From: Limisphaerales bacterium
Lineage (GTDB): Bacteria > Verrucomicrobiota > Verrucomicrobiia > Limisphaerales > BOG-1460
Assembly (NCBI GenBank): GCA_003159675.1
Contig: PLQC01000076.1
Location: 14,899-78,898 of the forward strand
DNA: 64,000 nt
Reading direction: 5' to 3'
Both the position numbers and the translations under genes were made by a program. The notes beneath the pieces are model-generated. The model ran no database searches and was not told the origin of the DNA. It saw only the letters and a program-made list of their open reading frames with translations. Every line of letters begins with the position of its first letter. The stretch's first letter is position 1. Below are positions 3,044-24,370 of the stretch, one piece after another.

Positions 3044-3062
3044 GAGGCCTCAGGATGTCGTG

Positions 3063-5969: not shown

Positions 5970-5990
5970 GCCGGCTGGCTAGCTGATGAC

Positions 5991-6022
5991 AAAAAACCCC
6001 TCCCCACCGAAGCGGGGAGGGG
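5991..6022 (-). terminator. Rho-independent terminator downstream of the 756-aa cytochrome gene
   Basis: Perfect 9-bp GC stem (plus strand CCCCTCCCC 5997-6005 / GGGGAGGGG 6014-6022) with an 8-nt loop. On the minus strand it is followed by TTTTTT (5991-5996). It lies 39 nt after the stop at 6061. Confidence 0.75.
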
Positions 6023-6060
6023 TGAAGAGATCGGCCTTGGTCGATCCAGGATATTCCCGG

Positions 6061-8331: not shown

Positions 8332-8410
8332 ATTTGCACTGCTGTTTAGAGGTTGACTGTCACACTTTCTTCATTAAGACCCTGGCCGCACACCGACGAT
8401 CATCTGTTGT

Positions 8411-9505: not shown

Positions 9506-10099
9506 GCGTATGCCTGTCGGGACCCGGAACCGGGGTTGGAGCTTCCTCTGGCTGCCGACGGACGACGACCCGCCGCGCTCCGACCTTGCGGCCACCGGGA
9601 TGCCCGACCCGCCGGAGTCACCTCTTCCCAGCTTTTACTGATTAGCCCACCAACGTCGTGTCGGCTGATCCAATTCACGCGCCTAATCTAAATTGACCAC
9701 CGGGACTGGCTCCCCATCCGTTGTCAATTACTTCGCGTTTTTTGCGTCCGGGATGCAACCGGAGTTCAGGGGCTTCGCCTCCCTCGGCGCGCGGACCCGG
9801 CACCGTCCCGCCAGCCCCGCCAGACCCGGCCCGGGGTAACCTCCAGACAACCCGGTAAACATTGGACATGCGCCCTGTCAGGCCTCCCTTCGTGCTGAAC
9901 AATCACACGGCAGGAGACCTGGATACAATCAGTTATTGTTGTTCTACATGTCACTGTAAATTCATACTACTAATCGACATTTGGTGCACCAAAGAAGGTT
10001 AGTGCCGTTGGCGGGGTGGGTTCCGGGAAGAGACAATTGACGCGCCCGGATTCTGCATGGCGGGTGTTGGCGTCAACCGAACAACACAGGAACACCGTC

Positions 10100-11857: not shown

Positions 11858-12038
11858 ATTGCACCAAGATTGCAGTGGACAAGGCCGGCCGCTCTACCTG
11901 GCTTGGCGATTTCTTCCCCTATTTTGCGGGCGGCCTTTTCATCCCGCGCATCGATTGCCAGTCGATCGCCAAAGAATTGCTTGTGGCGACTGCGGTGTTC
12001 CGGTGACAATCGCAGGACACGCTGGAAACCAACAATCC

Positions 12039-13196
12039 ATGAATCTCATGCGAACACTTTTTTCGCCGGTGGTTCCCCTCCTGCTGGGCGCCACGCTTGC
12101 ATTCCGACCGGCTGCAGCCGCCGACGAGCTGGTTCTCTTCGGCACCCATCGGTCCGGCCCCGGTACCGGCTTTTCCGTCGGTCGCTTCAATCCGGCCACC
12201 GGCGAACTGACCCGGACGGCCTTCGTCTGCGAGGCGGAGGCCCCCTCGTTCTTTGTGGTTCATCCGGATGGGAAACATCTTTACGCGTGCAACTCGATCG
12301 AGACGTTTCAAGGCAAACCGGAAGGCTCGATCAGCGCTTACGCGCTCGACCCCGCGTCGGGCAGGCTCACCTTGCTCGACCGCAAGCCGTCCGGCGGCGG
12401 CGAACCCTGTTACATCAGCCTCGACCGCACAGGCCGTTATGCGCTCGCCGCCAACTACAGCGGCGGAAGCATCTGCGTCTATGCCCTTCGGCCGGATGGC
12501 AGCCTGGGTGAACGCACCGCCTGGGTGCAACAGACGGGCCGCAGCGTGAACCCGGAGCGACAAACCCGCGCCTATGCTCATTGCATCCTCACCGATCCGG
12601 ACAACCGCTTCGCCCTCGCCGCCGACCTGGGCGCCGACAAGATCTTCGTTTATCATTTCAACGCGAGCAACGGCTCGCTGACGCCGAATGATCCGCCGTC
12701 CGTCCCGCTCAAACCGGGCTCCGGGCCGCGCCACATTACCTTTCATCCCAACGGGAGATTCGTCTATGTCATCAACGAGCTCGCCGGCACGGTGACCGCA
12801 TTCGACTGGGATTCCGCAAAGGGAACACTGGCCGAGTTCCAGACGATCTCAACCCTGCCGTCCAATTTCAACGGCCAGAATACGGCCGCCGAGGTCGAGG
12901 TGCATCCGAATGGAAAATGTCTGTACGCAACCAATCGCGGAGACGACAGCATCGCCGTCTTTGGCATCGACGCGAAAAGCGGCCGTCTCACCCGGGTCGG
13001 GCGCGTGCCCACGCGAGGCAGGATGCCGCGCTTTTTCACGCTGGATCCGACGGGGAAATGGCTGCTGCTGCTGAACCACGATTCGGACAATGCCATCGTG
13101 TTCCGTGTCGAGGAGGGAACCGGCCTGTTGACCCAGACGGGAACGCCGGTGCAGGTTCCCAACCCTTTTTGCGCAAGGTTCCTTTCACCGCCTTGA
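12039..13196 (+). CDS. Secreted 7-bladed beta-propeller lactonase family protein (6-phosphogluconolactonase/YbhE-like)
   Basis: ATG at 12039 (MNLMRTLFSPVVPLLLGATLAFRPAAA signal). Repeated propeller-blade motifs (HPDGKHLYACN, RTGRYALAANY, DPDNRFALAADLG, HPNGRFVYVINE, HPNGKCLYATNR, DPTGKWLLLLNH). Confidence 0.75.
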   Translation: MNLMRTLFSPVVPLLLGATLAFRPAAAADELVLFGTHRSGPGTGFSVGRFNPATGELTRTAFVCEAEAPSFFVVHPDGKHLYACNSIETFQGKPEGSISAYALDPASGRLTLLDRKPSGGGEPCYISLDRTGRYALAANYSGGSICVYALRPDGSLGERTAWVQQTGRSVNPERQTRAYAHCILTDPDNRFALAADLGADKIFVYHFNASNGSLTPNDPPSVPLKPGSGPRHITFHPNGRFVYVINELAGTVTAFDWDSAKGTLAEFQTISTLPSNFNGQNTAAEVEVHPNGKCLYATNRGDDSIAVFGIDAKSGRLTRVGRVPTRGRMPRFFTLDPTGKWLLLLNHDSDNAIVFRVEEGTGLLTQTGTPVQVPNPFCARFLSPP

Positions 13197-13235
13197 CCGT
13201 CGAGGAACGAACAGCCCGGTCCCATCCGTTCCCGT

Positions 13236-15440
13236 TCAATGTGCCAGGCGCGACGCCATGGCGTAAATGATCAGGATCAGCAACAGGACACCCAAGCCGA
13301 AGAAGAAATAGCCGAAGGATCTCGCGATGCTTTTCCATCGTTCCCATTCGTCCTTGACCCGGTACTGATCCAGCCTGCCTTCGGCCACCAGCCGGTCATA
13401 CCAGCGCTTCCGTTCGTGCAGCATTTCCGTCTTCGAGACGCGACCGGAGAAGATGACGGTGTCCATCGGGAATTTTTCAATTCGGAAATGAGTGTTGAAG
13501 AAATGGATTGAGAAGATGAAGCCCGCGGCCAGCAAGGCTTCGTCCGAATGAATGATCAGCGCGATGTTGATGATCCAGCCCGGCAGGAAGCGCGTGAAGA
13601 ATGTTGGAAACCACATGACTAATCCCGACGCGCCGATGATGGCCACACCCCAGAACACCGCGAAATAATCGAATTTTTCCCAATAAGTCCAGCGATCGAA
13701 CTCCGGTTTCGGCCCTTTGCCGAAGAACCATTTGTTGTGCGCGACGAAATCCTTCCAGTCCTGCCAGGTGGGCATCATGGAATCCGGTCCGAACAGGGTC
13801 GTCCAGAGCCTTCTCCACTGGAACCGGCCGCTGGCCGGATCGCGCAGCAATCCCCTGCCCTTCCAGGCCTTGCCGGCCAGCGCGGTCACGTGCAGGCCGA
13901 AGTAGAGGAAGGTGATGAGAGCGCCGAATCGATGCAGGGTGCGGGCCGTTTCCGCCCCGCCGATCACGTTGAAGATCACCTTGGCCCAGTCGGTGTAGTA
14001 GAACTTGAGCGGCATGCCGGTGATCACCAGCAGCAGGAAGCTCGTGACCACGAGAAAATGCAGGAATCGCTCGAACGGCACAAAGCGCGTGAACCATTCG
14101 TCATCCTGCTGCGTCCGGATCTTGGCTTCGCGGAACTTCCGGGTGTCGTGCAGGAACAAGTATACCGCTCGGACCAGCCAGATGACGGTGTGCAGGCCGA
14201 AGAATGTGAACACGCCGATCAGCAGGCCGGTCATGCCCAGGAACACGGCATGGAGCAATGGATAATTCTTTTTGTCGAGCGGATTGGCGTGGGGCTCGTA
14301 TTCCGTGAAGCCCTTCGTGGCGTCGGGATGACATTTCCGGCAGGTGGCAAGAATGTTGGCCTGCGAGAGATGGGACGCCGGGTTGGAGGGCGGCAGCACA
14401 TCGTGATAGCCGTGGCAGTCGTAGCAGGCGGCGACGTCCGGCGCCGCGTTCGGTTTGCCCAGCGCCATGGCTTTGCCGTGGTAGGTCTCCCGGTAATGCG
14501 CCAGCCGGTCCTCGTGACATTGGCCGCAACGCTGGTCGCTGAGGGCCTTGAAGTTGCTGCCCTCGGGATTCTCGATCTGGTGGGCGGAGTGACAGTCCAT
14601 GCAGACGGGCCCGCGCTTGTCGCCTTTGGCCAGAAGCTGCCCGTGAACGCTCTGCCGGTAGATTTTCTCGACCCCGACGTGGCATTTGCCACAGGTCCTG
14701 GCGACGTTGGCATGGTTGATCGGCGAGTCGCGATCGATGCTGCGCTTGATGTCGTGCACGCCGTGGCAATCGTTGCAGGAGGGCGCGACGATGAGACCCA
14801 TTTTCAATAACGCCCGGCCATGGATGCTGTCCATGTATTGCGACGCCGCTTCCGGGTATTTTATCTCATATTCCCTGGTCAGCCCGGGGTTGCTGTGGCA
14901 TTTCGCGCAGGTCTGCGGAAGGTTCAGTTTGAAAACCGGCGAAGCCGGATCCTTCACCGGCAGGATGCCGTGCGAGCCATGGCAATCCCAGCAATTCGCC
15001 GCTCCGGACGCGCCCATCGCGTGGCTCATGCCGTGGATGCTGGTGGCGTAATCCTTGCCGGCCTGTTCGTGACACGAGGCGCAATCCGGCGGCGGCAGTT
15101 TGCTCGGGTGCACCAGGTCCTTGATTCCGTCGTGACAATCGACGCAGGCGAGTTTGGCGTGAACGGATTTCTGGAAGGAATTGGTTGGAAACAGCAACGA
15201 AACCGTCTTGCCGTCCACTTTTCGGGTGGTGGACGGGTCCAGATGGCAGTCCAGGCAATCCGAGTTGGCGAATTTTTCAGCCGCACTGGCCGACACCAGG
15301 CCCAGGCAGAGAAAGACCAACAACCAACAACCAACAACCAACAACCAACATCGAATGGGCGTCCGCTTCGCCTCCTGGTGGATGTTGGATGTTGAATGTT
15401 GAATGTTGAATGTTCCCGCCAGGTTCTCCAGCCTTCTCAT
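13236..15440 (-). CDS. CbcL-like inner-membrane cytochrome: 11-heme c-type domain fused to a cytochrome b-type membrane domain
   Basis: 734 aa with 11 CXXCH motifs (CLDCH, CVDCH, CASCH, CWDCH, CAKCH, CNDCH, CGKCH, CMDCH, CGQCH, CYDCH, CRKCH). C-terminal multi-TM domain with conserved His. Its ATG (15440) overlaps the TGA of the upstream gene (ATGA), which fixes the start. Confidence 0.75.
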   Translation of the reverse strand: MRRLENLAGTFNIQHSTSNIHQEAKRTPIRCWLLVVGCWLLVFLCLGLVSASAAEKFANSDCLDCHLDPSTTRKVDGKTVSLLFPTNSFQKSVHAKLACVDCHDGIKDLVHPSKLPPPDCASCHEQAGKDYATSIHGMSHAMGASGAANCWDCHGSHGILPVKDPASPVFKLNLPQTCAKCHSNPGLTREYEIKYPEAASQYMDSIHGRALLKMGLIVAPSCNDCHGVHDIKRSIDRDSPINHANVARTCGKCHVGVEKIYRQSVHGQLLAKGDKRGPVCMDCHSAHQIENPEGSNFKALSDQRCGQCHEDRLAHYRETYHGKAMALGKPNAAPDVAACYDCHGYHDVLPPSNPASHLSQANILATCRKCHPDATKGFTEYEPHANPLDKKNYPLLHAVFLGMTGLLIGVFTFFGLHTVIWLVRAVYLFLHDTRKFREAKIRTQQDDEWFTRFVPFERFLHFLVVTSFLLLVITGMPLKFYYTDWAKVIFNVIGGAETARTLHRFGALITFLYFGLHVTALAGKAWKGRGLLRDPASGRFQWRRLWTTLFGPDSMMPTWQDWKDFVAHNKWFFGKGPKPEFDRWTYWEKFDYFAVFWGVAIIGASGLVMWFPTFFTRFLPGWIINIALIIHSDEALLAAGFIFSIHFFNTHFRIEKFPMDTVIFSGRVSKTEMLHERKRWYDRLVAEGRLDQYRVKDEWERWKSIARSFGYFFFGLGVLLLILIIYAMASRLAH
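15317..15350. repeat. Heptanucleotide tandem repeat (CCAACAA) x about 4.9, inside the signal-peptide codons of 13236-15440
   Basis: Read directly: ccaacaa ccaacaa ccaacaa ccaacaa ccaaca. On the coding strand (TTGTTGG)n encodes CWLLVVGCWLLV. Confidence 0.9.
15381..15414. repeat. Heptanucleotide tandem repeat ((G/A)ATGTTG) x about 4.9, codons 9-20 of 13236-15440
   Basis: Read directly: gatgttg gatgttg aatgttg aatgttg aatgtt. It encodes TFNIQHSTSNIH. It is partly reverse-complementary to the 15317-15350 array (5-6 of 7 positions per unit). Confidence 0.9.
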
Positions 15441-16927
15441 AGTCCGCCGTTGTGGCAGTCATTGCAGGCGCCATCGACTTCGTCTCCCGGGTGTTTGAAT
15501 TTTTGACCGTTGGATGACAGCACATTGAGCTCATCGCCGCTGCCCTGCGAAAGGATCGTGTGGCACGTGTTGCAGTCGCTCGCCTTGATCGTGCGCTTGC
15601 CGTCGGAGGCCATGTGCCTGCCGTCGTGGCAGCGGAAGCAGCCGGGCCAGTCCTTATGGCCGATGTTATTGGGATACTTGTCCCAGGACGCCTTCATCTC
15701 GGGGAAGAAATTGTCGCGGTAAATCTGCTGCACCGCATCGATGGCGGCGTGGACGCTCGGCTGCAGGCCGGAGTATTTGTCGGCCGGATAACTTTGCGCC
15801 ACTGCGGTGGCAATCCCTTCCATGGCCTGCGTCTGGTCGGTGTACTTGCGCGTGAGGACGCCGACAGCGTTGGTTTTGACCCAGGGCAGCGAGCGGTCGA
15901 TCTTGCCCAGATACATGGCCAGGTCCACGGCGTCGTCAGGGGATTGGTAGATGTGCGCCGGACGGTTGTGACAATCGATACAATCCATCGTGCGGATGGT
16001 CATCCGGTTCACGTCGTTGGTGAAGTTGCGGACTTTGTATTCGGTGACGATGCCCTGCGCATCCACCACCCGGACCCACGGGATGACCTGGCGCGCTTCG
16101 TCCGTGGAGACGTACTGCACCTTGTTGCCGACGCTCATGTGCCAGTGGATGCCTCCGACGGGTCCGTGTGTGGGATCACCGCCGCCGACCTTGATGATGA
16201 GCCGCACGGAAAACGGCGTGTTGGTTTCATCGCCGAGGAAGTAGTTGAAGGTTTTGTCCAGGTTGCCGACGAACTTTTTCGGCCAGTGGCATTCCTCGCA
16301 GGTTTCCTGAGCGGGACGCAGATTTTTGATCGGGGTCGGCACAGGGCGCGGGAACTTGTTGAACGCCACGGCGTACAACTGGTAAGTGCCTGAGAGCTTG
16401 GACTTGACGAACCACGTCGCGCCCGGGCCGATATGGCATTCCACGCAGGCCACGCGCGCGTGGGGACCGTGCTCGTAGGTCACCAATTCCGGTTGCATCA
16501 CGGTGTGGCAGGCCTGCCCGCAGAACTGAACCGACTCGGAGACCTGATAGGTGTGGTAACTCCCGATCGCCGACAGGAGCAGGAAAAGCACGCTGCCCAC
16601 GAGAAACCAGCCCATGATGCGCCGGTCGCGCGGACGGGAGAGATCCACTTGCACCGCCGACAGCAGGACACCCGCCCCGCCCCGCTTGTGCCGCTCGCGC
16701 AGCACGCCTGCCAACCCCAGCAGCAGTCCGAAAATCAGGAACCCGGGCGCGATAACGTAGGTGAGGATCCCGATGTATGGATTGGCGGAATGCGACACCG
16801 TATCGAGCACGAACAGGAAGAAAAACGAGAAAAGGCTCCCAACGACAACGACCAGTCCGGTCAGGGAGATCCAGTTGCGCAGCAAGGACCGCCGGTCCGC
16901 CGGGTTGTTCGTGCTCTCAGTGCTCAT
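15437..16927 (-). CDS. ImcH-like inner-membrane 7-heme c-type cytochrome (NapC/NirT-related region)
   Basis: 496 aa with three N-terminal TM helices. One CGQACH (CX3CH) plus six CXXCH (CVECH, CEECH, CIDCH, CFRCH, CNTCH, CNDCH). Heme number, TM count and size match my recollection of Geobacter ImcH. Confidence 0.65.
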   Translation of the reverse strand: MSTESTNNPADRRSLLRNWISLTGLVVVVGSLFSFFFLFVLDTVSHSANPYIGILTYVIAPGFLIFGLLLGLAGVLRERHKRGGAGVLLSAVQVDLSRPRDRRIMGWFLVGSVLFLLLSAIGSYHTYQVSESVQFCGQACHTVMQPELVTYEHGPHARVACVECHIGPGATWFVKSKLSGTYQLYAVAFNKFPRPVPTPIKNLRPAQETCEECHWPKKFVGNLDKTFNYFLGDETNTPFSVRLIIKVGGGDPTHGPVGGIHWHMSVGNKVQYVSTDEARQVIPWVRVVDAQGIVTEYKVRNFTNDVNRMTIRTMDCIDCHNRPAHIYQSPDDAVDLAMYLGKIDRSLPWVKTNAVGVLTRKYTDQTQAMEGIATAVAQSYPADKYSGLQPSVHAAIDAVQQIYRDNFFPEMKASWDKYPNNIGHKDWPGCFRCHDGRHMASDGKRTIKASDCNTCHTILSQGSGDELNVLSSNGQKFKHPGDEVDGACNDCHNGGL

Positions 16928-17079
16928 ATCGGTCCCATGGGCTTTACAGCGGTCCTCTCGTCGCTCGATCTCTCATGCTTCACGGCAGACGAAGGACTCT
17001 TCGCCGGCCGCGACAGCGATCTTGGAGACTCGCGCGCCGCGGCCGGAGTTGCTGAACTCAGGATTGCGGAACCGCCGCC

Positions 17080-17412
17080 TTACTGTTTCCCGAACGCGCG
17101 CATGTGGGCCACCAGACCTTTGATGTCGTCATCCGAGAGGCCCTCGGCCGGCTTCATCAGGGTCTTGTCGTCCTTGTCCTTCAATCCTTCCTTGATGGCT
17201 TTGAAGGCGGCATCATCTTTCAACTCCGCCTGGACTTTCGCGTCCGTGTAATCTTTTGCTCCGAGCTTCTTTCCCATTTTTGTGTCGCCCTTGCCATCGG
17301 CGCCATGACACTTGGCGCAGCCCTGGTCGTACAGGTCCTTGGCATCCCCCGCGCGTGCGGACAACGCTGCAACAGCCATCACCGCGATGCTCAGAGTGAG
17401 TAGTTTTTTCAT
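17080..17412 (-). CDS. Monoheme class I cytochrome c (periplasmic)
   Basis: ATG at 17412 (MKKLLTLSIAVMAVAALSARA signal). Single CAKCH. Distal Met candidate in TLMKP. About 70% identical by eye to 24371-24700. Confidence 0.85.
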   Translation of the reverse strand: MKKLLTLSIAVMAVAALSARAGDAKDLYDQGCAKCHGADGKGDTKMGKKLGAKDYTDAKVQAELKDDAAFKAIKEGLKDKDDKTLMKPAEGLSDDDIKGLVAHMRAFGKQ

Positions 17413-17777
17413 AGATTTGTCTGTGTTAAACTGCCAGCCGGCTTCCGTCTTGATCCGCCGACCGGATTTTGTGTGCGTCACGTCCGTATCCTTATCGCCG
17501 CCCTCCGGCTTTCACCTTTCCGATCTTGTCAAAGGCTTAACATTTCTTGGCGTAATGCGTCAATCCAGGAGCAGCCGTCGGTTCCAGGGAGCACACGCGT
17601 CCTCGCGTGTCCCGACCGGCTCCTCGCCGGTCGGAAAGGGGGCGCAATGCTGTCACCAACCGGTGCTTCGTTCGAGCGCGCTTTCGTTGTCGGCGAGGGC
17701 GCCGACTCCCGCGCGCGAGGCGCGTGCGCTCCCCTTCCTGGTTGCCTGATGCTTCTCTTGCCCTTGATCAAACCGCC

Positions 17778-18215
17778 TCACCCGCCAACCTGATCCGCCA
17801 ATCCGCAAAGAGCCTGGTAATAGTCATCCCTGACCAGGCCCAGCGCCGCGGCACCGAACGTTTCGGCGTCCTCGGCTGAGGCGAATTCGCCGTAATTCAC
17901 GAGCACCAGTTGGTAGAGCACCAGGTGCGGCACACGCTCCATCTGTGTGATGAACGACGGATGCACGCATATTACAAAGCCGTCCTCGGGCCGTTTCCCC
18001 CGCGCCATCGGATGCGCGAATTCGCCCGGCTGCAGCGGCCCTGAATCGAAAACGATCTCGCACGGGTAACGCACCACCTCGCGGTCTTCCAAAATGCGAA
18101 GCAATTCCCGCCAGCCGATGGTCGGGCCGTATTTCGCCCGGATCTCCGCGCCCTTCGCGGCCACGTGCGCGTTCAGCGATTGCCGGGCGTCTTGAGCGGT
18201 GAGTTGGATGGCCAT
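17778..18215 (-). CDS. Hypothetical cytoplasmic protein, last gene of the NrfD operon
   Basis: 145-aa ORF with an ATG start, 29 nt after the NrfD stop on the same strand. No signal peptide, TM helix or motif I recognise. Confidence 0.55.
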   Translation of the reverse strand: MAIQLTAQDARQSLNAHVAAKGAEIRAKYGPTIGWRELLRILEDREVVRYPCEIVFDSGPLQPGEFAHPMARGKRPEDGFVICVHPSFITQMERVPHLVLYQLVLVNYGEFASAEDAETFGAAALGLVRDDYYQALCGLADQVGG

Positions 18216-18244: not shown

Positions 18245-19990
18245 TCAAGGTTCGGCCGCGGCCCCAAGCGCCGTGGCGCCTGCACCGCGTCCGGTTTGTC
18301 CCTCATTCGCCTTGCACAGCCTGCCTTGGAGAATCGGCACCGACATGCGGAGGAAAGCCGTATAGCACAGCAACCCGAACGCCCAGATGCCAAAGCAAAC
18401 CAGCGTCTCGTTCAGCGACGGCCGGTATTCGACCATCTCACCCAGGGGCGTCGGGATGAAGCCGGGGATGACGAGGCCCATTCCTTTTTCAATCCAAATG
18501 CCGACGATGCAGAGAACGCAGGTTACGTTCAGCCACCGCAAACTGCGGCTCACCGGCAGGACAAGCAGCACCATCGCGACCAGGTTGAACGCGATGGCTG
18601 TCCAGATCCACGGGACCAGGGCGTGATGGCCGTGCAGGCCGACGTAGAGGTATTTCGATGAGGCGACGTGCAGGTTGCCGGAGTAAAACTCCTTGAACAC
18701 CTCGTTCAGAAGCAGGAACACATTGATGAGCATCGATACCTGCACGATGCTGCGCAGGGTCATCAGGGCGCGATCCGTAATCATCAGCCGCTCGGACATT
18801 CTCGACCGGACAATTTTGTTCACCCGGGGATTTTTCATGAGCCTGCGCAGGGAGTCGGACGAGAGACGCAGAACCAGGCAGGGTTCTTCGGCGACGGCCG
18901 TGGCCGCCCGCGGTGATCCGGCGAGGGCGGAGATCTCGCCAAACTGTTCGCCCGGCCCGACGCTGCGCGTGATCCGGAAGCGACCGCCCTCCTCCCGCTT
19001 CACAACCACCCGCCCTTCCAAAACGAAAAACGCCCTGTCCTCCGTCTCCCCCTGGCGCAGCAGAACATCCCCCGCGCCCGCTTTCAAAACCGTCGCGCCG
19101 CTGAGGATGCCCTCGCGCACCTCCCTGGAGACCGATTCCATCTCGCGCAAATGACAGGCCAGCAGCTCCAGATCGGCGAGCGTGGCGGGGCGGCTCGACG
19201 GCTGCCGTGGACCTGCCGCGCCCTGCCGCGCCCGCGAGGCGTCGGCCGCGGGAGCGGAAGCGGTGACGCGGCGGACCACTTGCATCGCCAGAATGATCAG
19301 AGCCGGGCCGGCGGTGAACGCCGAGGCGAGAAAGCGCGGACCGACAACGGCCGAGTTCCAAAAAGGCCGTCCGCCGAGGCCGACGTAAAGGAACGCCGTC
19401 ACCGTGTGAATTGAAATGGCCCAGACGATGGCAATAAAAACGAACGGAATGTAAAACCACTTGGCCGCCTTCTTCTTTTGATAGCGGCAATACAGCAGGT
19501 AACCGCAGATGTAAACATTCAGCAGGAGGTACCCGTTCAGGACGATCACGTCCCAACTCAACATGGAAGCGGGAAAGTTAAACTGCCCGATCCCCGGGAT
19601 GAGGTGCCAAAAACGGTCGGGCCGGCCCAGGTCCACCGCCACAAACGCCAGACACATGAGGATGGCGGCGACGGCCAGCAGTTCGCCGAAGATCACTAGG
19701 TCGTGCAGCTCCTCATTATTGTAAATGTAAACGGGGATCACCATCATCACCGCCGCCGCCGCCACGCCCACGAGAAAGGTGAAGTTCGCGATATACACCC
19801 CCCACGAAACCTCGTCGCTCATGCCGGTGACAATGAGGCCCTGCGCGAATTGCTTCGCGTAGGCATTCAGGCCCAACAGACAGATGACGGTCAACGCCCC
19901 CATCCAGGCGTAGTACCGCCAGTCGCCCACGAACGCAATGCGGGCGCAGCGCCGCAGAAAAACAAAATAATTCCGAATCGCGCGCGTCAT
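18245..19990 (-). CDS. NrfD/PsrC-family quinone-interacting membrane subunit with an inserted cyclic-nucleotide-binding domain
   Basis: 581 aa with about 10 TM helices. NrfD-like N-terminus, paralogous to 21732-22967. Soluble insert between TM6 and TM7 carries the CAP-type cNMP motif. ATG overlaps the TGA of the ferredoxin gene (ATGA at 19987-19990). Confidence 0.85.
   Translation of the reverse strand: MTRAIRNYFVFLRRCARIAFVGDWRYYAWMGALTVICLLGLNAYAKQFAQGLIVTGMSDEVSWGVYIANFTFLVGVAAAAVMMVIPVYIYNNEELHDLVIFGELLAVAAILMCLAFVAVDLGRPDRFWHLIPGIGQFNFPASMLSWDVIVLNGYLLLNVYICGYLLYCRYQKKKAAKWFYIPFVFIAIVWAISIHTVTAFLYVGLGGRPFWNSAVVGPRFLASAFTAGPALIILAMQVVRRVTASAPAADASRARQGAAGPRQPSSRPATLADLELLACHLREMESVSREVREGILSGATVLKAGAGDVLLRQGETEDRAFFVLEGRVVVKREEGGRFRITRSVGPGEQFGEISALAGSPRAATAVAEEPCLVLRLSSDSLRRLMKNPRVNKIVRSRMSERLMITDRALMTLRSIVQVSMLINVFLLLNEVFKEFYSGNLHVASSKYLYVGLHGHHALVPWIWTAIAFNLVAMVLLVLPVSRSLRWLNVTCVLCIVGIWIEKGMGLVIPGFIPTPLGEMVEYRPSLNETLVCFGIWAFGLLCYTAFLRMSVPILQGRLCKANEGQTGRGAGATALGAAAEP
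18776..19270 (-). other. Insert encoding a cNMP-binding (CAP effector) domain within the NrfD gene (residues about 241-405)
   Basis: GDVLLRQGETEDRAFFVLEGRVVVKREEGGRFRITRSVGPGEQFGEISALAGSPRAATAVAEEPCLVLRL. The phosphate-binding cassette FGE...PRAAT is present. Flanked by low-complexity A/P/R linkers. Confidence 0.8.
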
Positions 19991-20943
19991 ACGTCGAAGT
20001 AGTAAAAGAACCGGGGCGAGGTCCCCATCTCCTCCTTCAGTTGGATGAACACCCTTTTGTTCTTGAGGATATAGGAGACTTCACTGTTGGGATCGAGAAT
20101 GTTGCCGAACTTCCGCGCGCCCGCCGGGCAAACCTCCAGACATGCCGGATAGCGTCCCGCCCGGGTGCGCTGGATGCAGAAGTGGCATTTTTCCATCACC
20201 CCTTGGCGACGCGGACGGTTGCCCAGATACGACATCTCGGGGTTGAGCCGCTCCTTCGGAATGGACGGCTTGGTGAAATTGAAGCGTCGCGCCCAGTAGG
20301 GACACGCCGCTTCACAATAACGGCAGCCGATGCACCAGTCGTAATCGATCACCGTGATGCCATCGGTCTCCTGCCACGTGGCATGGACCGGACAAACCTT
20401 GACGCATGGCGGGTTCTTGCACTGCTGGCACTGCACCGGCATGTAAAAGTAACCTTTCTCCGGAACCGACTCCGGCGCGTAGTTGTGCTCGGCCTTTTCA
20501 ATGTCCAGCGAGCCGTCAGGCAGGCGCAAAACCCGGATGTACTGGATCTCCGGATTCCGCGACTGGTTGTTTTCCGCCACGCACGCGTGAACGCATTTGC
20601 GGCAGCCGATGCAGCGCGTCAGGTTCAGACAATAGACAAACTCCACGCCATCCATCGGCTTCAAGTCCCGCACGTGCGGCCGGATTCCATATTGACGTTC
20701 GACCTCGTTTTCGATGCGTCGGATGACCTTCGCCATGTCGTCCGGGGTCATCTCCTTGTAGTACTTCTGCAGGAACCGTTCGGCGGTCGGAAAATCGTTC
20801 ATCTGGAGCAGCGGCTTCAGGCTGGCGGCCAGCGCGGCCAGACCGGTGGTCAGCACCGCCGAGGTTCTCAAAAAGCTGCGCCGGGTCACCCCGGCGTCGG
20901 CCGGGGCCGCATCTGGAGTGAAGTTGGGCTCGGGGGCTGGCAT
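19987..20943 (-). CDS. Tat-exported 4x[4Fe-4S] ferredoxin subunit (NrfC/PsrB/HybA-like)
   Basis: ATG at 20943, 1 nt after the upstream stop. Twin-arginine signal TRRSFLRTSAV. Cys clusters CIGCRKCVHAC, CQQCKNPPCVKVCP, CIGCRYCEAACP and CHFC...CLEVCP. Confidence 0.85.
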   Translation of the reverse strand: MPAPEPNFTPDAAPADAGVTRRSFLRTSAVLTTGLAALAASLKPLLQMNDFPTAERFLQKYYKEMTPDDMAKVIRRIENEVERQYGIRPHVRDLKPMDGVEFVYCLNLTRCIGCRKCVHACVAENNQSRNPEIQYIRVLRLPDGSLDIEKAEHNYAPESVPEKGYFYMPVQCQQCKNPPCVKVCPVHATWQETDGITVIDYDWCIGCRYCEAACPYWARRFNFTKPSIPKERLNPEMSYLGNRPRRQGVMEKCHFCIQRTRAGRYPACLEVCPAGARKFGNILDPNSEVSYILKNKRVFIQLKEEMGTSPRFFYYFDV

Positions 20944-20944: not shown

Positions 20945-21727
20945 TCAGCGGCTTGGGTACTGGGCCAGTTTGACGACAGCACCGGTGGGACGAGCGTCCT
21001 CGCGAGCCAAAACCCCAAGTTTTGTTTCCACGGCGGCTCGCCAGGAGTCTCGCCCCACCAAGCTGACCCATTCACTACCGGGATTGGACGGCGTTCCACT
21101 TGATGCGGCCCCCGCCGCCACCGGGCGCAGCAGGTGCGGGCCGGGCGCGGGTTGTCGCGAGGGAAACCGGGGCGAATGAGGGTTGTGACAATTCACGCAC
21201 GCCTTTCGCTGCGCCTCGCCCAGATCCCGGTCCCAGTAGCCGCTGATGCGCCCGTGCGCGCCCGCTTCCCAGTCCCGGTAAGTCGGGCCGTGGCAACTGC
21301 CGCAAAGCGCCGGGCTGTCGGCGAATTTCACCTGGTGGCCGTCCCGGGTTTCCAGCAGCTCGAGGTTGTTTTCGTCGTGACAATTGAAGCAGTTGTTATT
21401 GCGGCCGTGACGCCCATGCCCCATGACAACGTCCGAATGCTCCTTGGGAACGATCAGGTGTTGATCGGCATCAAACCGCAGTCTTGGCGGCTTGCCTCTC
21501 TCATGGCAGGCGTAACAATCGAAATCCGACAGGTCGTCGCCCGCGCGAACCAGATCCGCATACGACCGCCGCACGGTCGCGGTGTCGAGGAAATTCGTGG
21601 CCACCAGTGGAATGGGGTAAAGCAGGGCTGGCTGGCCGCGGAAGTCGAGGAGAAAGCCGGCTGCCAGCGCGACGAAGATCGTCGACAACCCGAACAGCAC
21701 CGCCGAGGTTTTGCTGCCAGGGCTCAT
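20945..21727 (-). CDS. Membrane-anchored tetraheme c-type cytochrome
   Basis: ATG at 21727 (MSPGSKTSAVLFGLSTIFVALAAGFLL anchor). CYACH, CFNCH, CGSCH, CVNCH. Confidence 0.8.
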   Translation of the reverse strand: MSPGSKTSAVLFGLSTIFVALAAGFLLDFRGQPALLYPIPLVATNFLDTATVRRSYADLVRAGDDLSDFDCYACHERGKPPRLRFDADQHLIVPKEHSDVVMGHGRHGRNNNCFNCHDENNLELLETRDGHQVKFADSPALCGSCHGPTYRDWEAGAHGRISGYWDRDLGEAQRKACVNCHNPHSPRFPSRQPAPGPHLLRPVAAGAASSGTPSNPGSEWVSLVGRDSWRAAVETKLGVLAREDARPTGAVVKLAQYPSR

Positions 21728-21731
21728 AGTG

Positions 21732-22967
21732 TCAAGTCGTGGAGCTGCCGTGCGGGGTGTGCCCACTCGTCGGCAGCCGTTCGGACAGAAACAATTTCAC
21801 CAGGACCGTCAAGATCACGAACGGCAGGCCCAGGAGAAGAATCCCCATGAACCAGCCTTCGACGCCGGCGAATTCCATTTTGTAACCCATCACCCCGCGC
21901 AGGCTCTTGGAAAAAAGCTGCCCGCCGATCACGACGTTCCACCGCATCGCCAACACACCGATCAGGATCATGGCCGCGCTGGCGGAAATCATGCGGCGGC
22001 GGACCATTTCCGGCACGCGCCTGCGAAGAAGCTGGAGCGACCCCAGCAATAGAAACGGCACCAGCGTTCCAATCGTCGCCTGCCCGAGGTTCAGGGTATA
22101 AAACAGCTTCTCGCGAATCATGGTCTGCATCACCGAGAACCCCTCCTCGGCCGCGTAAATGCGATGGATCCAGTCCAACCCTTCAACAGCCGCGTCCACG
22201 AGCAACGCGTAGAAGAGGAACATGGCCATGGTGTCCAGGCAACGCATCTCGACGGTGTGGCGCCGAATCCAGGTGAGGACCATGTAGTTGAACACGCAGA
22301 GCGCGATGCCCGACACAATGGCCGAGAGGATGAAGATGATGGGCATGATGGCATTGCCCCACCAGGGGTTGGCTTTGATCGAGCCAAAAATGAAGCCGAC
22401 GTAGCCATGCAGCAAAAACGCCGACGGAATGCCCACAACGGAAAGGATCCGGCCCATCTTCACATCCAGCGCCACGGCCGGCGGCGATACGTCGGTCACG
22501 CCAACGGTGAAGATGCGATAGATAATCCCCTTGAACCCGGCGGTGGTTTTCGACCATTCCACGAGATCCTGCCGGTAATCAAACCAAAGCTCCAGCAGCA
22601 ACACCGCCATCAAGTACCAGGCATAAACGAAGCCAAAGATCGCCATCGGGGAAGTCAGGTGCGGCGTTATCATGATTTCATAACAGCGTTCGGGATGGCC
22701 CAGATGAAACAGCAGGGGCAACGTCGCGCACAGGAGAAACGCCAGGGCCGTCAGCAGCGAGAGCCGGTACACCGGTTCCAGCGCCTTGACTTTGAACACC
22801 CGCACCAGCGATGCCATGATGAACGCGCCCGCAACCAATCCGGTGATGTAGGGGTAGAGCACGATGAGGAAACCCCACAGCGGGTGCGCGGTCGCTTCAT
22901 TGGGATAAACGTAACCTTCGAACCTCGGCAGAACTTCGACAACGATATTGGTCACTTCGCTCGTCAT
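21732..22967 (-). CDS. NrfD/PsrC-family integral membrane subunit (no insert)
   Basis: 411 aa with about 10 TM helices. Follows the ferredoxin gene with a 1-nt gap. Paralog of 18245-19990. Confidence 0.85.
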   Translation of the reverse strand: MTSEVTNIVVEVLPRFEGYVYPNEATAHPLWGFLIVLYPYITGLVAGAFIMASLVRVFKVKALEPVYRLSLLTALAFLLCATLPLLFHLGHPERCYEIMITPHLTSPMAIFGFVYAWYLMAVLLLELWFDYRQDLVEWSKTTAGFKGIIYRIFTVGVTDVSPPAVALDVKMGRILSVVGIPSAFLLHGYVGFIFGSIKANPWWGNAIMPIIFILSAIVSGIALCVFNYMVLTWIRRHTVEMRCLDTMAMFLFYALLVDAAVEGLDWIHRIYAAEEGFSVMQTMIREKLFYTLNLGQATIGTLVPFLLLGSLQLLRRRVPEMVRRRMISASAAMILIGVLAMRWNVVIGGQLFSKSLRGVMGYKMEFAGVEGWFMGILLLGLPFVILTVLVKLFLSERLPTSGHTPHGSSTT

Positions 22968-22968: not shown

Positions 22969-23778
22969 TCACCTTACCTCCTTGTCCAACCCGGCGTAGA
23001 GGACACGGGGTGCCGTGCCCAGGTACGGCTTGAGCACCTGCACCCGGTTCTGCTCGTAAAACTTCTGGATCGGATCGTCCGGAACCGGATTCAGTAAATC
23101 ACCGAAAATGCGCGCCTGGGTCGGACAGATCTCCGCGCACGCCGGTTTGAGTCCGCGCGTGATCCGGTGATAACACAGCGTGCACTTTTCGGCGGTCTTC
23201 GTCACCGGGCTCAGGAACCGGCAGCCGTAAGGACACGCCTGGATGCAAAAGCCGCAGCCGATGCAGTACTTCGGGTCGATGAGCACCGCGCCGTCGGGCG
23301 CGTCAAACGTCGCCCCGACCGGACACACCTGGACGCAGGGCGAATGCTCGCACAAGTTGCACAGCTTCGGGACGAAAAACGAATGCTCGATCTGATCCCT
23401 GGGCACCGGCGACTCGGGAAATCCGTGCATTCCTCCATCGGGGGAATCCACCAGAGTCTCCCCGCGCGTCTGGCCCGAACCCGGCTTGGGTTTCTGGATG
23501 ATGTAACGCTCGATCCATGTGCGAAAGTAAGGTCCTTCCGGGACGCCGTTTTCCTTCTTGCACGCCTCGGCGCAAAGCCCGCAGCCGATGCACTTGTTGA
23601 CGTCGATGCACATGAGCCATTTATGCTTCGACGGGTCATATCCTCTGGCGGCGCCGGAGGACACGAATACCCTTTGCACCGCCGCCTTGGCGGTGCGCGC
23701 GACCGGCAACGCGAGCACTCCGGCCAAAATGCCGCCCAACCTGGCAAGCGCGCCGCGACGATTGAACTGGGTCTTCAT
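22969..23778 (-). CDS. Tat-exported 4x[4Fe-4S] ferredoxin subunit (NrfC/PsrB/HybA-like)
   Basis: ATG at 23778 overlaps the TGA of the tetraheme gene (ATGA). Signal MKTQFNRRGALARLGG. Clusters CIGCGLCAEAC, CNLCEHSPCVQVCP, CIGCGFCIQACP and CTLC...CAEICP. Confidence 0.85.
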   Translation of the reverse strand: MKTQFNRRGALARLGGILAGVLALPVARTAKAAVQRVFVSSGAARGYDPSKHKWLMCIDVNKCIGCGLCAEACKKENGVPEGPYFRTWIERYIIQKPKPGSGQTRGETLVDSPDGGMHGFPESPVPRDQIEHSFFVPKLCNLCEHSPCVQVCPVGATFDAPDGAVLIDPKYCIGCGFCIQACPYGCRFLSPVTKTAEKCTLCYHRITRGLKPACAEICPTQARIFGDLLNPVPDDPIQKFYEQNRVQVLKPYLGTAPRVLYAGLDKEVR

Positions 23779-24281
23779 GGGCTTTGGGTCGGTTGATGCG
23801 GAATGTGGCACTCGGTGCACTTTCCGCTGTAATGATCCTTCACGACGATCTGCTTGAACCACGCCGGCCGGGAAGGGTTGGCTTCGTGACACCGGATGCA
23901 ATGGCTGCCCGTCAGTTTCACCGGCAATATATCCGGGTCGTCGGCATGGGTCCGGCTCACACCGTGGCAGGCTTCGCAGGAAAGCGTCTTGTGCGCATCC
24001 CCGGCAAGCTTGTGCAGGATGTCGGAATGACACTCGTCGCACGCTTTCTTGCCCGCATAAACCGGAGTCCGCGCCGCCAGTTCCTCCAGCGCCGCACCGC
24101 GATACCAGCCATACTGCCCGAATGTCGCCGGCGTCAGGAACACGCGAGCGACCATGTAGGACCCCACAATGGCCAATGTCAGCAACACCAGCCGAAGAAT
24201 CTGGGGCGGCATTTGAAAGCGGCGCATGAGCGTTGGCCCTCTGGAATCGCTTCTCTGGTTGAAGAAGGGGTTGCCGCTCAA
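23775..24281 (-). CDS. Membrane-anchored tetraheme c-type cytochrome
   Basis: 168-aa ORF; alternative starts at 24227 or 24212. TM anchor ILRLVLLTLAIVGSYMVARVFL. CDECH, CEACH, CIRCH, CTECH. Confidence 0.8.
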   Translation of the reverse strand: MSGNPFFNQRSDSRGPTLMRRFQMPPQILRLVLLTLAIVGSYMVARVFLTPATFGQYGWYRGAALEELAARTPVYAGKKACDECHSDILHKLAGDAHKTLSCEACHGVSRTHADDPDILPVKLTGSHCIRCHEANPSRPAWFKQIVVKDHYSGKCTECHIPHQPTQSP

Positions 24282-24370
24282 AACAAATCACCGCCCTGTC
24301 CCCGCAGCCCATCACTTCCCCTGCAACGCCCAGCCAGCGGGGCCGGCAACCCTCTTCCCCTCCATCCGGG

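Follow-up and report, generated by a model that had tools for sequence, protein, structure and literature searches.

NrfD-type subunits serve as anchors in many anaerobic respiratory complexes, among them Psr, Nrf, Dsr, Qrc, Hyb and Alternative Complex III (ACIII), and their part in proton movement is debated. One of the described assemblies closest to the locus reported here is the DsrOhPh-tetrahaem triad ('DsrOhPhCyt', earlier 'candidate alternative complex III') of cable and other bacteria, which passages of two reports describe as separate from dsrMK and as present also in organisms without sulfur metabolism (PMC13047784; bioRxiv 10.64898/2026.08.25.746951). Another is Cbc4 of Geobacter sulfurreducens (CbcS GSU0068, CbcT GSU0069, CbcU GSU0070), a predicted quinol:cytochrome c oxidoreductase and one of several parallel inner-membrane oxidoreductases alongside ImcH, CbcL and CbcBA. 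For the membrane subunit, the closest solved structure is ActC of ACIII (PDB 6f0k_C, 6btm_C, 6lod_C, 8k9e_C), which shares with the protein described below 10 transmembrane (TM) helices arranged as two four-helix bundles plus helices A and B, cytoplasmic termini and a quinone site near the periplasm. In agreement with the first-pass annotation of this DNA, which knew of no characterised precedent, the literature on NrfD-family proteins with CNB, cNMP, CBS or cAMP-binding domains yielded no description of such a fusion. The Cbc4 literature examined gives CbcU no cyclic-nucleotide domain, and the passages of the two DsrOhPh-tetrahaem reports (PMC13047784; bioRxiv 10.64898/2026.08.25.746951) make no mention of a regulatory domain on any subunit; 'CBS' does not occur in PMC13047784, and the words 'fusion', 'fused' and 'regulat' are absent from a review of the NrfD family (PMC8076601).

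The cyclic-nucleotide-binding (CNB) domain reported here is best compared with those of MloK1, SthK, the HCN/CNG channels, PKA RI-alpha and Epac, with which it shares its fold and phosphate-binding-cassette chemistry. The hinge and lid form the moving part in PKA, Epac and CNG channels. The channels carry their CNB domain as a C-terminal appendage, joined on its N-side by a C-linker to the pore helix, whereas in the present protein it is an internal domain whose C-terminal helix links it to TM7 of a redox subunit, with no ion pore or kinase; the proposed logic, in which a ligand-driven hinge-lid movement would be passed to a transmembrane helix, is the same. Cyclic AMP already has a place in respiration: in Shewanella, CRP is reportedly required for anaerobic respiration and metal reduction. 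That cAMP-CRP control is transcriptional and works through a soluble DNA-binding protein, while the putative sensor described here is built into the respiratory enzyme itself and lacks a helix-turn-helix. A passage of one report describes a cyclic AMP signal as governing respiratory pathways in Shewanella (PMC4830989).

Here, we describe a locus in a 64-kb stretch of DNA (the window) that encodes a relative of these triads with a CNB domain embedded in its NrfD subunit. The features of the locus are listed in Table 1.

Table 1. Position and make-up of the features of the NrfD-CNB locus in the window.
Feature	Position	Strand	Basis or content
NrfD/DsrP-type 10-TM quinone-handling subunit with embedded CNB domain, 581 aa	18245..19990	-	Pfam, NCBIfam, AF2, Foldseek
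N-terminal membrane half, residues 1-243	19262..19990	-	amphipathic N-helix, TM1 (helix A), TM2-5 (first four-helix bundle), TM6
Flexible linker, residues 244-268, cytoplasmic TM6 end to CNB domain	19187..19261	-	pLDDT, dN/dS, length variation
CNB domain, residues 269-400	18791..19186	-	helices 271-298, eight-stranded beta core 299-377, alpha-B 378-385, alpha-C 388-400
Phosphate-binding cassette FGEISALAGSPRAATAVA, residues 350-367	18890..18943	-	G351, E352, R361, A363 invariant in 59 species
C-terminal membrane half, residues 401-581	18248..18790	-	TM7-9 (rest of second four-helix bundle), TM10 (helix B)
Periplasmic Fe-S partner (DsrO/CbcT-like), 318 aa from ATG at 20943	19987..20943	-	Tat motif TRRSFLR, Pfam Fer4_11 and related
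Membrane-anchored tetrahaem cytochrome c (CbcS-like)	20945..21766	-	N-terminal TM anchor, Pfam Cytochrome_C7 and related
Conserved 145-aa soluble protein, directly downstream of NrfD	17778..18215	-	synteny

Results

A CNB domain lies between two halves of a DsrP-like NrfD subunit

The first-pass annotation had read the 581-aa ORF on the minus strand as an NrfD-family protein of about 10 TM helices with a CNB domain between TM6 and TM7, and both the ORF and this reading of it held up in Pfam, NCBIfam, hydropathy and AF2 analyses. In Pfam, PF03916 (NrfD) covers residues 54-247 (E = 1.4e-37, 130 bits against a cutoff of 25.8) and PF00027 (cNMP_binding) residues 305-387 (E = 4.2e-21, 75 bits against a cutoff of 27.5). 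The annotation had expected PF00027 to split PF03916 into two matches; PF00027 was indeed found, but Pfam gave no second PF03916 stretch for the C-terminal NrfD half. Instead, it is the NCBIfam DsrP model (NF045798; 409 bits against an equivalog cutoff of 350) that matches in two stretches, covering both halves with the CNB insert between them. Hydropathy and the AF2 model (pTM 0.69) agree on 10 TM helices, which the model places at residues 24-50, 65-89, 93-121, 141-170, 177-203 and 213-243 in the N-terminal half and at 404-437, 459-482, 484-507 and 526-554 in the C-terminal half. In the NrfD family, the first four-helix bundle (TM2-5 here) houses the quinone site (PMC8076601); the second bundle begins with TM6 and TM7, and the CNB insert sits in the short cytoplasmic loop that joins them. 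The best Foldseek match of the membrane part is ActC (target TM-score 0.67), and a profile of insert-less orthologues finds 6f0k_C with E = 1e-24 over both halves. ActC is about 14% identical and has only a short loop at the insertion point. Taken with the adjacent, translationally coupled Fe-S partner bearing a Tat motif, the profile match and the 10 TM helices place the protein in the NrfD/PsrC family.

Alignment against the insert-less orthologues defines the insert as residues 244-400 (157 aa, nt 18791-19261) in the TM6-TM7 loop, so that the location originally proposed stands while its ends (residues about 241-405) have shifted. The reading frame through the ORF is unbroken, with NrfD sequence on either flank. 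The insert is predicted to lie on the cytoplasmic side. As the first-pass annotation had argued from the positive-inside rule, there are six Arg in the first 25 residues and five Lys/Arg in the TM4-5 loop, and the count of 10 TM helices and homology to ActC point the same way: the insertion point aligns with the TM6-TM7 loop of ActC, whose termini are on the N-side (PMC8076601). Further support comes from two kinds of relative. In one (P0131), the NrfD subunit is fused to a C-terminal cytochrome of the kind encoded in the triad (Table 1) and has the one additional TM helix needed for its export; the other, the P0126-type clade discussed below, carries a CBS pair at the C-terminus.

The two tethers of the CNB domain are asymmetric. 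On the N-terminal side the linker is floppy and variable, with pLDDT <50 at residues 245-262 in the AF2 model and a length of 26 to 36 residues for segment 240-271 across 59 species. On the C-terminal side the alpha-C-to-TM7 connection is fixed in length: residues 378-410 span 33 residues in 59/59 species, with a conserved 'RM.ERL.ITD.AL', and in the AF2 model TM7 begins a 3-residue break after the alpha-C helix.

The ligand site is intact and under purifying selection

The closest solved relative of the insert is the cAMP-bound CNB-B domain of PKA RI-alpha. PKA RI-alpha was matched by sequence in the PDB with E = 4e-16, and Foldseek aligned the CNB domain to 5kjy with a target TM-score of 0.71 and an rmsd of 2.8 A. 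The annotation's claim of an intact cassette with its Glu (FGE) and Arg (PRAAT) was borne out, and the F-G-E-I and P-R-A-A-T residues are those of PKA RI-alpha CNB-B in the HMMER alignment. In such cassettes, Gly-Glu makes the ribose 2'-OH contact and Arg-x-Ala the cyclic phosphate contact. All four of these residues (Table 1) are unchanged in 59/59 insert-bearing species genomes, and the domain retains every residue that in PKA and CAP touches the ribose or the cyclic phosphate. The position after the conserved Arg is highly variable in the same 59 genomes (A/V/M/T/L/E/Q), and because of this the nucleotide specificity is unreadable from sequence.

The CNB domain is of constant length in 59/59 species and is under purifying selection, with a dN/dS of 0.26 for the whole domain and 0.22 for the beta core plus phosphate-binding cassette, against 0.85 for the linker. 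Together, the invariant contact residues and the dN/dS values suggest that the insert is ligand-competent. Pfam gave no match to a helix-turn-helix family in the 581-aa ORF, and the C-helix continues into TM7. Identification of the protein as a CRP/FNR transcription factor was rejected because no C-terminal helix-turn-helix follows the CNB C-helix.

The fusion protein belongs to a tetrahaem cytochrome/Fe-S/NrfD triad

The genes for the tetrahaem cytochrome, the Fe-S protein and the NrfD-CNB protein are tightly coupled, and the stop codon of the Fe-S gene overlaps the NrfD start (ATGA). The Fe-S partner scores 170 bits with NCBIfam DsrO, below the cutoff of 200, and is 66-97% identical (with one 91% partial match) in 78/81 loci, those that extend upstream of the NrfD gene. 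The cytochrome has four CXXCH motifs (residues 84, 126, 155 and 190), and its gene was found upstream of the Fe-S gene in 76/81 loci. Loci missing either gene are those that start too near the NrfD gene.

By architecture and published descriptions, this is an uncharacterized triad of the DsrOhPh-tetrahaem or Cbc4 kind, with a presumed function as menaquinol:cytochrome c oxidoreductase. Like the DsrOhPh-tetrahaem triad, it has three members, namely a DsrP-like NrfD subunit, an Fe-S protein resembling DsrO and a tetrahaem cytochrome c; compared by description, it differs in the 157-aa CNB domain in the TM6-TM7 loop and in the conserved 145-aa gene that follows. With Cbc4 it shares, at the level of architecture, a tetrahaem cytochrome that is anchored in the membrane and has a linker, together with an integral membrane subunit and a multi-[4Fe-4S] protein. 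Membership in a DsrMKJOP complex was rejected despite the DsrP score because DsrM and DsrK are lacking and the cytochrome is tetrahaem as opposed to the trihaem dsrJ; the NrfD-CNB protein is thus a DsrP homologue and not DsrP. Membership in ACIII was also rejected. In ACIII, ActC has ActA, ActB, ActD, ActE and ActF as partners, while the NrfD-CNB locus lacks them, with no genes for ActB, the pentahaem ActA, ActD/E or ActF in the window or in the related locus L081.

The gene for the 145-aa protein lies downstream in nearly all loci that are long enough, insert-bearing and insert-less alike, and in L081 its start overlaps the NrfD stop. The protein has 2,675 homologue clusters and is modeled by AF2 with a pLDDT of 91. 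No Pfam domain was found among the 120 homologue matches listed, and there was neither a PDB sequence match nor a significant Foldseek match (best E = 1.1). Judged from synteny, it is a possible cytoplasmic partner and may belong to the complex.

The triad sits inside a multihaem gene cluster that looks like one for extracellular electron transfer. Side by side, the window encodes two NrfD triads, two CbcL-like proteins and one ImcH-like protein, and proteins of the latter two types accompany Cbc4 in Geobacter as well. The second NrfD protein, a 411-aa product encoded upstream, has no insert, as the first-pass annotation had noted; at 22% identity over 222 aa it is a distant family member and not a close paralogue. 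The informative comparators are instead the insert-less orthologues, because their cores are 83-90% identical and they occur in the same operon. A scan of the large ORFs of the 64-kb window turned up no nucleotide cyclase. The ORF at 25066-27888 encodes a type I phosphodiesterase/nucleotide pyrophosphatase fused to TPR and sulfotransferase domains, and it has no counterpart among the genes predicted upstream of the L081 operon. A search for riboswitches and other RNA families gave 0 Rfam hits, and terminator and promoter scans were at chance level.

The fusion is common and the insert has been lost or exchanged repeatedly

A search for homologues showed the NrfD-CNB fusion to be common. With the same junctions, it occurs in >120 sequence clusters at 90% identity from JGI, ENA, NCBI and Logan assemblies, and precomputed Pfam annotation of the sequence collection gives NrfD plus CNB for every fusion match. 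The insert is present in 59/76 complete species-representative loci, complete chromosomes among them; the fusion is frequent in metagenome-derived genomes, the majority of which are labelled Verrucomicrobiota. In the remaining 17/76 loci, the insert is cleanly absent from the same operon. The catalytic core can evidently do without the CNB domain because these close orthologues lack it, which suggests that the domain is a regulatory add-on.

A single gain or single loss, with the insert-less orthologues as one clade, was rejected because trees of the core and three neighboring genes require 7-12 changes of insert state. The insert has thus been lost or exchanged many times and is dispensable in many lineages. 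No direct repeats of at least 6 nt, a possible driver of precise deletion, were found at the insert junctions, and no compensating stand-alone CNB gene was found in the insert-less loci or elsewhere in the window. Overall GC is 0.69 in the insert vs 0.59 in the core, and GC3 is the same in both (0.80); a recent foreign origin of the insert was rejected on the basis of the equal GC3.

In a sister clade (P0126-type), the NrfD subunit bears a CBS pair at its C-terminus instead of a CNB domain; among the named matches are Geoalkalibacter, Malonomonas, Thermodesulfovibrionales and Desulfobulbaceae. CBS pairs typically bind adenosine nucleotides. The clade belongs to the same DsrP-like NrfD subfamily (43-52% identity to the window protein) and the same cytochrome/Fe-S/NrfD triad; it likewise has a predicted cytoplasmic nucleotide-sensing domain on the membrane subunit and close relatives without the domain. 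It differs in that the CBS pair is at the C-terminus and not in a loop, and in that it occurs in other phyla. Nucleotide sensors thus appear to have been recruited twice to this subunit.

Discussion

The reading we favor, at a probability of roughly 55%, is that a membrane subunit of the menaquinol:cytochrome c oxidoreductase type acquired an intact CNB domain and that cAMP binding gates its activity through TM7. The insert would bind cAMP (cGMP being less likely), and the resulting hinge-lid (alpha-B/alpha-C) movement would be passed mechanically to TM7, where it could change how the periplasmic-side site turns over quinone or how protons pass between that site and the cytoplasm. The sense of such a switch would be the fast post-translational routing of electrons among parallel quinol oxidoreductases according to carbon or energy status. 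Direct allosteric gating by cAMP is plausible on the anatomy of the protein, namely its invariant ligand-contact residues and the seemingly rigid connection from the C-helix to TM7. Gating is further favored by several observations. Experiments on QrcD and HybB support a proton path that connects the cytoplasm with the quinone site on the periplasmic side, a redox-active quinol site has been seen in DsrP by cryo-EM, a CBS pair was recruited independently to the same subunit of the same triad, and parallel quinol oxidoreductases and multihaem cytochromes are present in the genomic context. On the other hand, the cytoplasmic half-channel lies mainly in the first bundle (TMH1-4) (PMC8076601) while the insert is on the second, Qrc mutagenesis gave no support to two-half-channel gating, and the DsrMKJOP structures offer no clear basis for proton pumping. 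The failure to find a cyclase among the scanned large ORFs and the dispensability of the insert in many lineages also count against gating. A wider version of the proposal is tentative: that cAMP, reporting carbon or energy status, acts as a direct allosteric switch on a proton-coupled quinol:cytochrome c oxidoreductase via the sensor of its cofactor-free NrfD subunit, and that, with the CBS clade, this represents a general and hitherto unrecognized principle of post-translational routing.

The same domain could bind cyclic nucleotide without gating catalysis and act as a ligand-dependent docking or assembly module, whether by dimerizing the complex through the C-helix as in CAP, by recruiting the 145-aa protein, or by affecting stability or localization. 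CNB C-helices mediate dimerization in CRP-family proteins, DsrP-DsrP contacts stabilize higher-order assembly in DsrMKJOP, and the conserved soluble protein is encoded immediately downstream with translational coupling in some loci. That protein, however, is equally present with insert-less orthologues and hence independent of the CNB domain, and the invariant length and conservation of the alpha-C-to-TM7 connection favor mechanical coupling over a free docking surface, making a docking role rather unlikely. We give slightly less credence to an insert that has lost the ability to bind cyclic nucleotides, or never had it, and that might bind another small molecule or form only a structural cytoplasmic cap. 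Some members of the CRP/FNR superfamily use a CNB fold for other ligands (CooA, NtcA), and both the variable residue after the conserved Arg and the negative cyclase scan of the window's large ORFs would fit such a role. It is difficult to square, however, with Gly-Glu and Arg-x-Ala contacts that are invariant in all 59 species and, in the window protein, identical to those of PKA RI-alpha CNB-B, with best sequence and structure matches that are genuine cAMP/cGMP binders, or with the purifying selection on the beta core and cassette.

Finally, the fusion could in principle be a chimeric contig or a frameshift that joined two genes. Apart from the higher overall GC of the insert, nothing speaks for this, and the recurrence of the same junctions in so many clusters of varied assembly source and in 59 species genomes, the equal GC3 and the continuous frame flanked by NrfD on both sides reduce it to a negligible prospect; the first-pass annotation had asked for a chimera to be excluded, and the fusion proved genuine.

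For gating through TM7, the insert-less orthologues provide natural controls for an effect of cAMP on quinol turnover and proton flux. A CNB domain wired into TM7, together with the parallel CBS fusion, suggests that complexes anchored by NrfD-type subunits can be controlled directly at the protein level from the cytoplasm. If so, the cytoplasmic face of the NrfD subunit, whose role in proton transfer is debated, would be functionally decisive, and the CBS-fused sister clade may sense adenylate energy charge. Bacteria would then route electrons post-translationally with nucleotide sensors on the cytoplasmic face of the subunit that handles quinone and protons. Control of this kind may explain how bacteria that abound in peat, lakes and groundwater, with genomes mostly labelled Verrucomicrobiota, pick among their several parallel electron-export routes.

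A cyclic-nucleotide-binding domain embedded in an NrfD-type subunit

The reading frame described in the first-pass annotation, 581 aa on the minus strand, was recovered intact. The cNMP signature quoted there lies at residues 350-367, and Pfam matched both NrfD (PF03916; residues 54-247, E = 1.4e-37) and cNMP_binding (PF00027; residues 305-387, E = 4.2e-21, 75 bits vs a gathering score of 27.5). The NCBIfam DsrP model (409 bits, cutoff 350) matched in two stretches with the insert between them, and the insert region alone also matched CRP, a mycobacterial cNMP-regulated acetyltransferase and other cyclic-nucleotide-binding (CNB) proteins. Orthologues lacking the insert are about 407-410 residues long, and their cores are 83-90% identical to that of the window protein (NrfD-CNB). 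Alignment with them defined a clean 157-residue insertion (residues 244-400, nt 18791-19261), bounded by '...QVVRRVT' at the end of TM6 and 'RLMITDRAL...' at the start of TM7; at this site the insert-less proteins have a six-residue loop only, 'T-HYRITD'.

An AlphaFold2 model built from a 110-sequence alignment (pLDDT 74, pTM 0.69) has ten transmembrane helices. In Foldseek searches, its membrane part was nearest to ActC of Alternative Complex III (ACIII; 8k9e_C, 6btm_C, 6lod_C and 6f0k_C, target TM-score 0.67). The insert was nearest to the cAMP-bound CNB-B domain of PKA RI-alpha (5kjy, target TM-score 0.71, rmsd 2.8 A), followed by SthK, MloK1, PKG and CAP.

Features of the window and of the NrfD-CNB insert (nucleotide positions unless residues are stated)
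Feature	Position	Strand	Remarks
710-aa protein	35-2167	-	matches no NCBIfam family; possibly a porin
DmsE/GSU2203-like cytochrome	2180-3043	-	
9-haem cytochrome	3063-4661	-	
9-haem cytochrome	6061-8331	-	
hemA	8411-9595	-	embedded in multihaem cluster
Multihaem + FdnI-like cytochrome b fusion	10100-11857	-	CbcL-like by architecture
Multihaem + FdnI-like cytochrome b fusion	13236-15440	-	CbcL-like by architecture
NapC/NirT-type membrane cytochrome	15437-16927	-	ImcH-like by architecture
Monohaem cytochrome c			downstream region of NrfD-CNB operon
Conserved 145-aa gene	17778-18215	-	follows NrfD-CNB gene
NrfD-CNB gene	18245..19990	-	ATGA overlap with Fe-S stop
Tat-exported Fe-S protein	19987-20943	-	junction with tetrahaem gene TGAtATG
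Membrane-anchored tetrahaem cytochrome	20945-21766	-	first operon gene
Second triad, NrfD	21732-22967	-	
Second triad, Fe-S protein	22969-23778	-	269 aa, Tat; ATGA overlap at start
Second triad, tetrahaem cytochrome	23775-24281	-	CXXCH at residues 81, 102, 128, 155
940-aa protein	25066-27888	-	
Insert, disordered stretch	residues 245-262		pLDDT < 50
Insert, N-terminal helices	residues 271-298		
Insert, beta core	residues 299-377		short phosphate-binding-cassette helix 352-357 inside
Insert, alpha-B	residues 378-385		
Insert, alpha-C	residues 388-400		TM7 helix (404-437) starts three residues on

The fusion is widespread in environmental bacteria

All 120 best matches to the protein (90%-identity clusters, 81-99% identical) carry both PF03916 and PF00027. 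The sources are JGI, ENA, NCBI and Logan assemblies, and this recurrence across independent assemblies rules out a chimera, leaving virtually no chance that the fusion is an assembly artefact. A peat metagenome-assembled genome (MAG) from SPRUCE matches the window at 96% identity. Contigs drawn from one genome per species contain at least 579 stretches encoding a relative; in the 81 loci analyzed, the insert is present in 59 of 76 complete genes and absent from the other 17. Record labels are mostly Verrucomicrobiota (Opitutae, Limisphaerales/Pedosphaera and Verrucomicrobiae). Several public MAG records bear implausible labels (Bifidobacteriaceae, Klebsiella pneumoniae, Candidatus Acidoferrum, Proteobacteria; loci L006, L046, L049, L004 and L055). 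Their proteins are 65-83% identical to Verrucomicrobiota-labelled ones, and the records are probably mislabelled or contaminated bins. Because clustering at 50% reduces the fusion to P0121 (66% identical), the single full-length representative, and fragments, the fusion forms a fairly narrow clade.

The insert and the core have the same GC3 (0.80), and a recent foreign origin of the insert was therefore rejected. Neighbor-joining trees were built for loci L001-L081 from the core, taken whole or as its N- and C-halves, and from three neighboring genes. Insert presence is patchy across the operon phylogeny: 7-12 changes of insert state are needed, vs 14-15 for random labels. Monophyly of the insert-less forms was found in no bootstrap, so they were rejected as a single clade. 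The deepest branches of the clade are all insert-bearing, a pattern in favor of a single gain and many later losses. Yet one junction is common to all 17 insert-less proteins: I239 and an invariant Tyr aligned to window residue 402, where the outgroup also has an aromatic residue; most have Lys407 as well. Alignment positions linked to insert state occur at residues 239 and 401-410 only, and synonymous sites are saturated (dS about 1.3). Either of two processes could account for this: precise deletion that recurred, the loop being repaired convergently each time, or short-tract recombination that exchanges a loop 'cassette'. Since the catalytic core works without the CNB domain under either of them, the domain is a regulatory add-on.

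The insert is cytoplasmic and its ligand site is intact

Four independent lines of evidence agree that the insert is cytoplasmic. The positive-inside argument made from the sequence at first reading held, with six Arg in the first 25 residues and five Lys/Arg in the TM4-5 loop. The insert-less orthologue profile matches ActC in the cryo-EM structure of R. marinus ACIII (E = 1e-24), and opposite the insertion point ActC has a short loop, 'ARKAYGLENVITIDH', joining the sixth and seventh of its 10 helices; the TM6-TM7 loop is cytoplasmic because both termini of 10-helix NrfD proteins are on the N-side (PMC8076601). Relatives with C-terminal extensions agree: P0131 has an additional transmembrane helix followed by a C-terminal tetrahaem cytochrome, a domain that has to be exported, and P0126 ends directly in a CBS pair, a module that is normally cytoplasmic. 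The operon partners fit the same orientation, the Fe-S protein having a Tat motif and the cytochrome a membrane anchor followed by four CXXCH motifs.

Gly351-Glu352 and Arg361-x-Ala363 are kept in the cassette of all 59 insert-bearing species genomes, so that the Glu and Arg pointed out initially (Glu352, Arg361) are invariant. In PKA and CAP these residues bind the 2'-OH of the ribose and the cyclic phosphate, and at the ligand contacts the window cassette is identical to that of PKA RI-alpha CNB-B. The residue after Arg361 varies among the 59 genomes (A/V/M/T/L/E/Q), meaning that no side-chain determinant for cGMP is conserved and specificity is not readable from sequence; cAMP would be the simplest guess. 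Pairwise dN/dS (NG86, about 140 pairs) was 0.095 for the membrane core, 0.26 for the CNB domain, 0.22 for its beta core plus cassette and 0.85 for the linker (244-268). These values indicate that selection maintains the CNB domain and not the linker.

Genomic context

NrfD-CNB is encoded by the third gene of a tightly coupled operon. Of the 81 loci, 78 have the Fe-S gene and 76 the tetrahaem gene; the remaining ones begin too near the NrfD gene to include them. Insert-less loci have the same operon genes. The upstream NrfD noted in the first-pass annotation exists, but it is no close paralogue (22% identical over 222 aa). It belongs to a second, distantly related triad, which accompanies the first at some loci only. 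A 448-aa reading frame listed mechanically at 22969-24315 (-) is two genes, the tetrahaem cytochrome lying in another frame. The 940-aa protein combines a type I phosphodiesterase/nucleotide pyrophosphatase, TPR repeats and a sulfotransferase domain; its gene is immediately upstream of the cytochrome operon in the window, and none was called there in locus L081.

In nearly all loci that reach far enough, with or without the insert, the conserved 145-aa soluble protein is encoded directly 3' of NrfD, and in L081 the NrfD stop overlaps its start. Its homologues fall into 2,675 clusters; among the 120 listed no Pfam domain occurs, and those with a name are called 'hypothetical protein'. Its AlphaFold2 model is confident (pLDDT 91) and had no significant match among PDB folds. 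Invariant residues include H17, R45, R49, Y50, P51, C52, E65, H85, P86, Y101, Q102, N107, Y108, D116, E118 and C137. The protein is a possible partner of the complex on the cytoplasmic side.

Further downstream, 35-17500 (-) is a large multihaem cluster, apparently of the extracellular-electron-transfer type, its further cytochromes having 7 to 9 haems. The set resembles that of Geobacter, in which parallel inner-membrane quinol oxidoreductases (ImcH, CbcL and Cbc complexes) are combined with an outer conduit; the labels ImcH and CbcL were assigned by architecture.

Relatives and sister fusions

The triad corresponds to the 'DsrOhPh-tetrahaem' complex, formerly named candidate ACIII, which was recently reported from cable bacteria and from organisms lacking sulfur metabolism, with its role yet to be assigned (PMC13047784; bioRxiv 10.64898/2026.08.25.746951). 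By architecture it also matches Geobacter Cbc4 (CbcSTU), whose role is likewise yet to be assigned. No description of the NrfD-CNB fusion was found in full-text literature on the NrfD family and nucleotide-binding domains. The terms 'NrfD' and 'cyclic nucleotide-binding' occurred together only in a Rhodococcus equi comparative-genomics study, and the words 'fusion', 'fused' and 'regulat' are absent from the NrfD review (PMC8076601). The fusion is thus undescribed in the literature searched.

P0126-type proteins, 43-52% identical to the window protein, have a C-terminal CBS pair (PF00571, E = 1e-26). The pair is present in 112 of the 120 best-scoring clusters, a diverse clade 55-100% identical to P0126 (P0271-P0389) with no description in the literature searched. 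Organism names are given for few records: Geoalkalibacter, Malonomonas, Thermodesulfovibrionales and Desulfobulbaceae. The CBS pair is absent from some close relatives, including one labelled Desulfuromonas, and one member of the clade is called 'DsrP' by NCBI. In locus L083, the CBS-type NrfD (6001-7686) lies inside the same cytochrome/Fe-S/NrfD triad. Directly upstream is a stand-alone Crp/Fnr-family gene (3735-4436; cNMP_binding + HTH_Crp_2), which may mean that a CNB protein controls this complex at the level of transcription. Two other fusions join triad components: P0131 (616 aa), whose C-terminal cytochrome is like that of the window operon, and P0209 (573 aa), with the Fe-S protein at the NrfD N-terminus. 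As Rosetta-stone fusions they support physical association of the three components.

A proposed model of signal-dependent modulation of the complex

Across the 59 species, the segment from TM6 to the CNB domain (240-271) varies from 26 to 36 residues, whereas the N-helices, beta core and the alpha-B/alpha-C-to-TM7 segment (378-410) have identical lengths in all, with a conserved junction into TM7, 'RM.ERL.ITD.AL..LR.IVQV'. Alpha-B/alpha-C form the hinge-lid, the element that moves upon ligand binding in PKA, Epac and CNG channels. Its rigid connection to a transmembrane helix is the main anatomical argument for allosteric coupling. In the best-supported reading, to which we assign a probability of roughly 0.55, a cytoplasmic cAMP-type signal would bind the insert, hinge-lid movement would pass through alpha-C to TM7, and quinone turnover or a cytoplasm-linked proton path of the membrane subunit would be modulated. 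The interpretation offered at first reading is thus partly supported: its architecture, topology and sensor integrity are established, and ligand and gating are its inferred parts.

Two observations argue against simple gating: the proposed N-side half-channel is mainly in the first bundle and the insert is on the second (PMC8076601), and Qrc results gave no support for two-half-channel gating. Mutagenesis of QrcD and HybB supports a proton path from the cytoplasm to a periplasmic-side quinol site. The DsrP cryo-EM work (bioRxiv 10.64898/2026.08.25.746951) places a redox-active quinol site near the periplasm, < 8 A from a DsrO cluster, and proton pumping by NrfD subunits is still debated in the QrcD/HybB and DsrP studies. 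The insert could instead be a ligand-dependent docking or assembly module, which we consider unlikely given how rigidly the hinge-lid is joined to TM7. Somewhat less probable still is a CNB fold with another ligand or none: the position after Arg361 is free to vary, but the invariant cassette speaks for an intact site.

The CNB and CBS fusions together show that the NrfD subunit acquired nucleotide-sensing modules on its cytoplasmic face on two or more occasions, and the second sensor fusion strengthens the regulatory reading. The natural insert-less orthologues are ready controls, making the system experimentally tractable. If modulation through TM7 operates as proposed, flux via the NrfD-CNB branch would be tuned relative to the parallel oxidoreductases encoded nearby.
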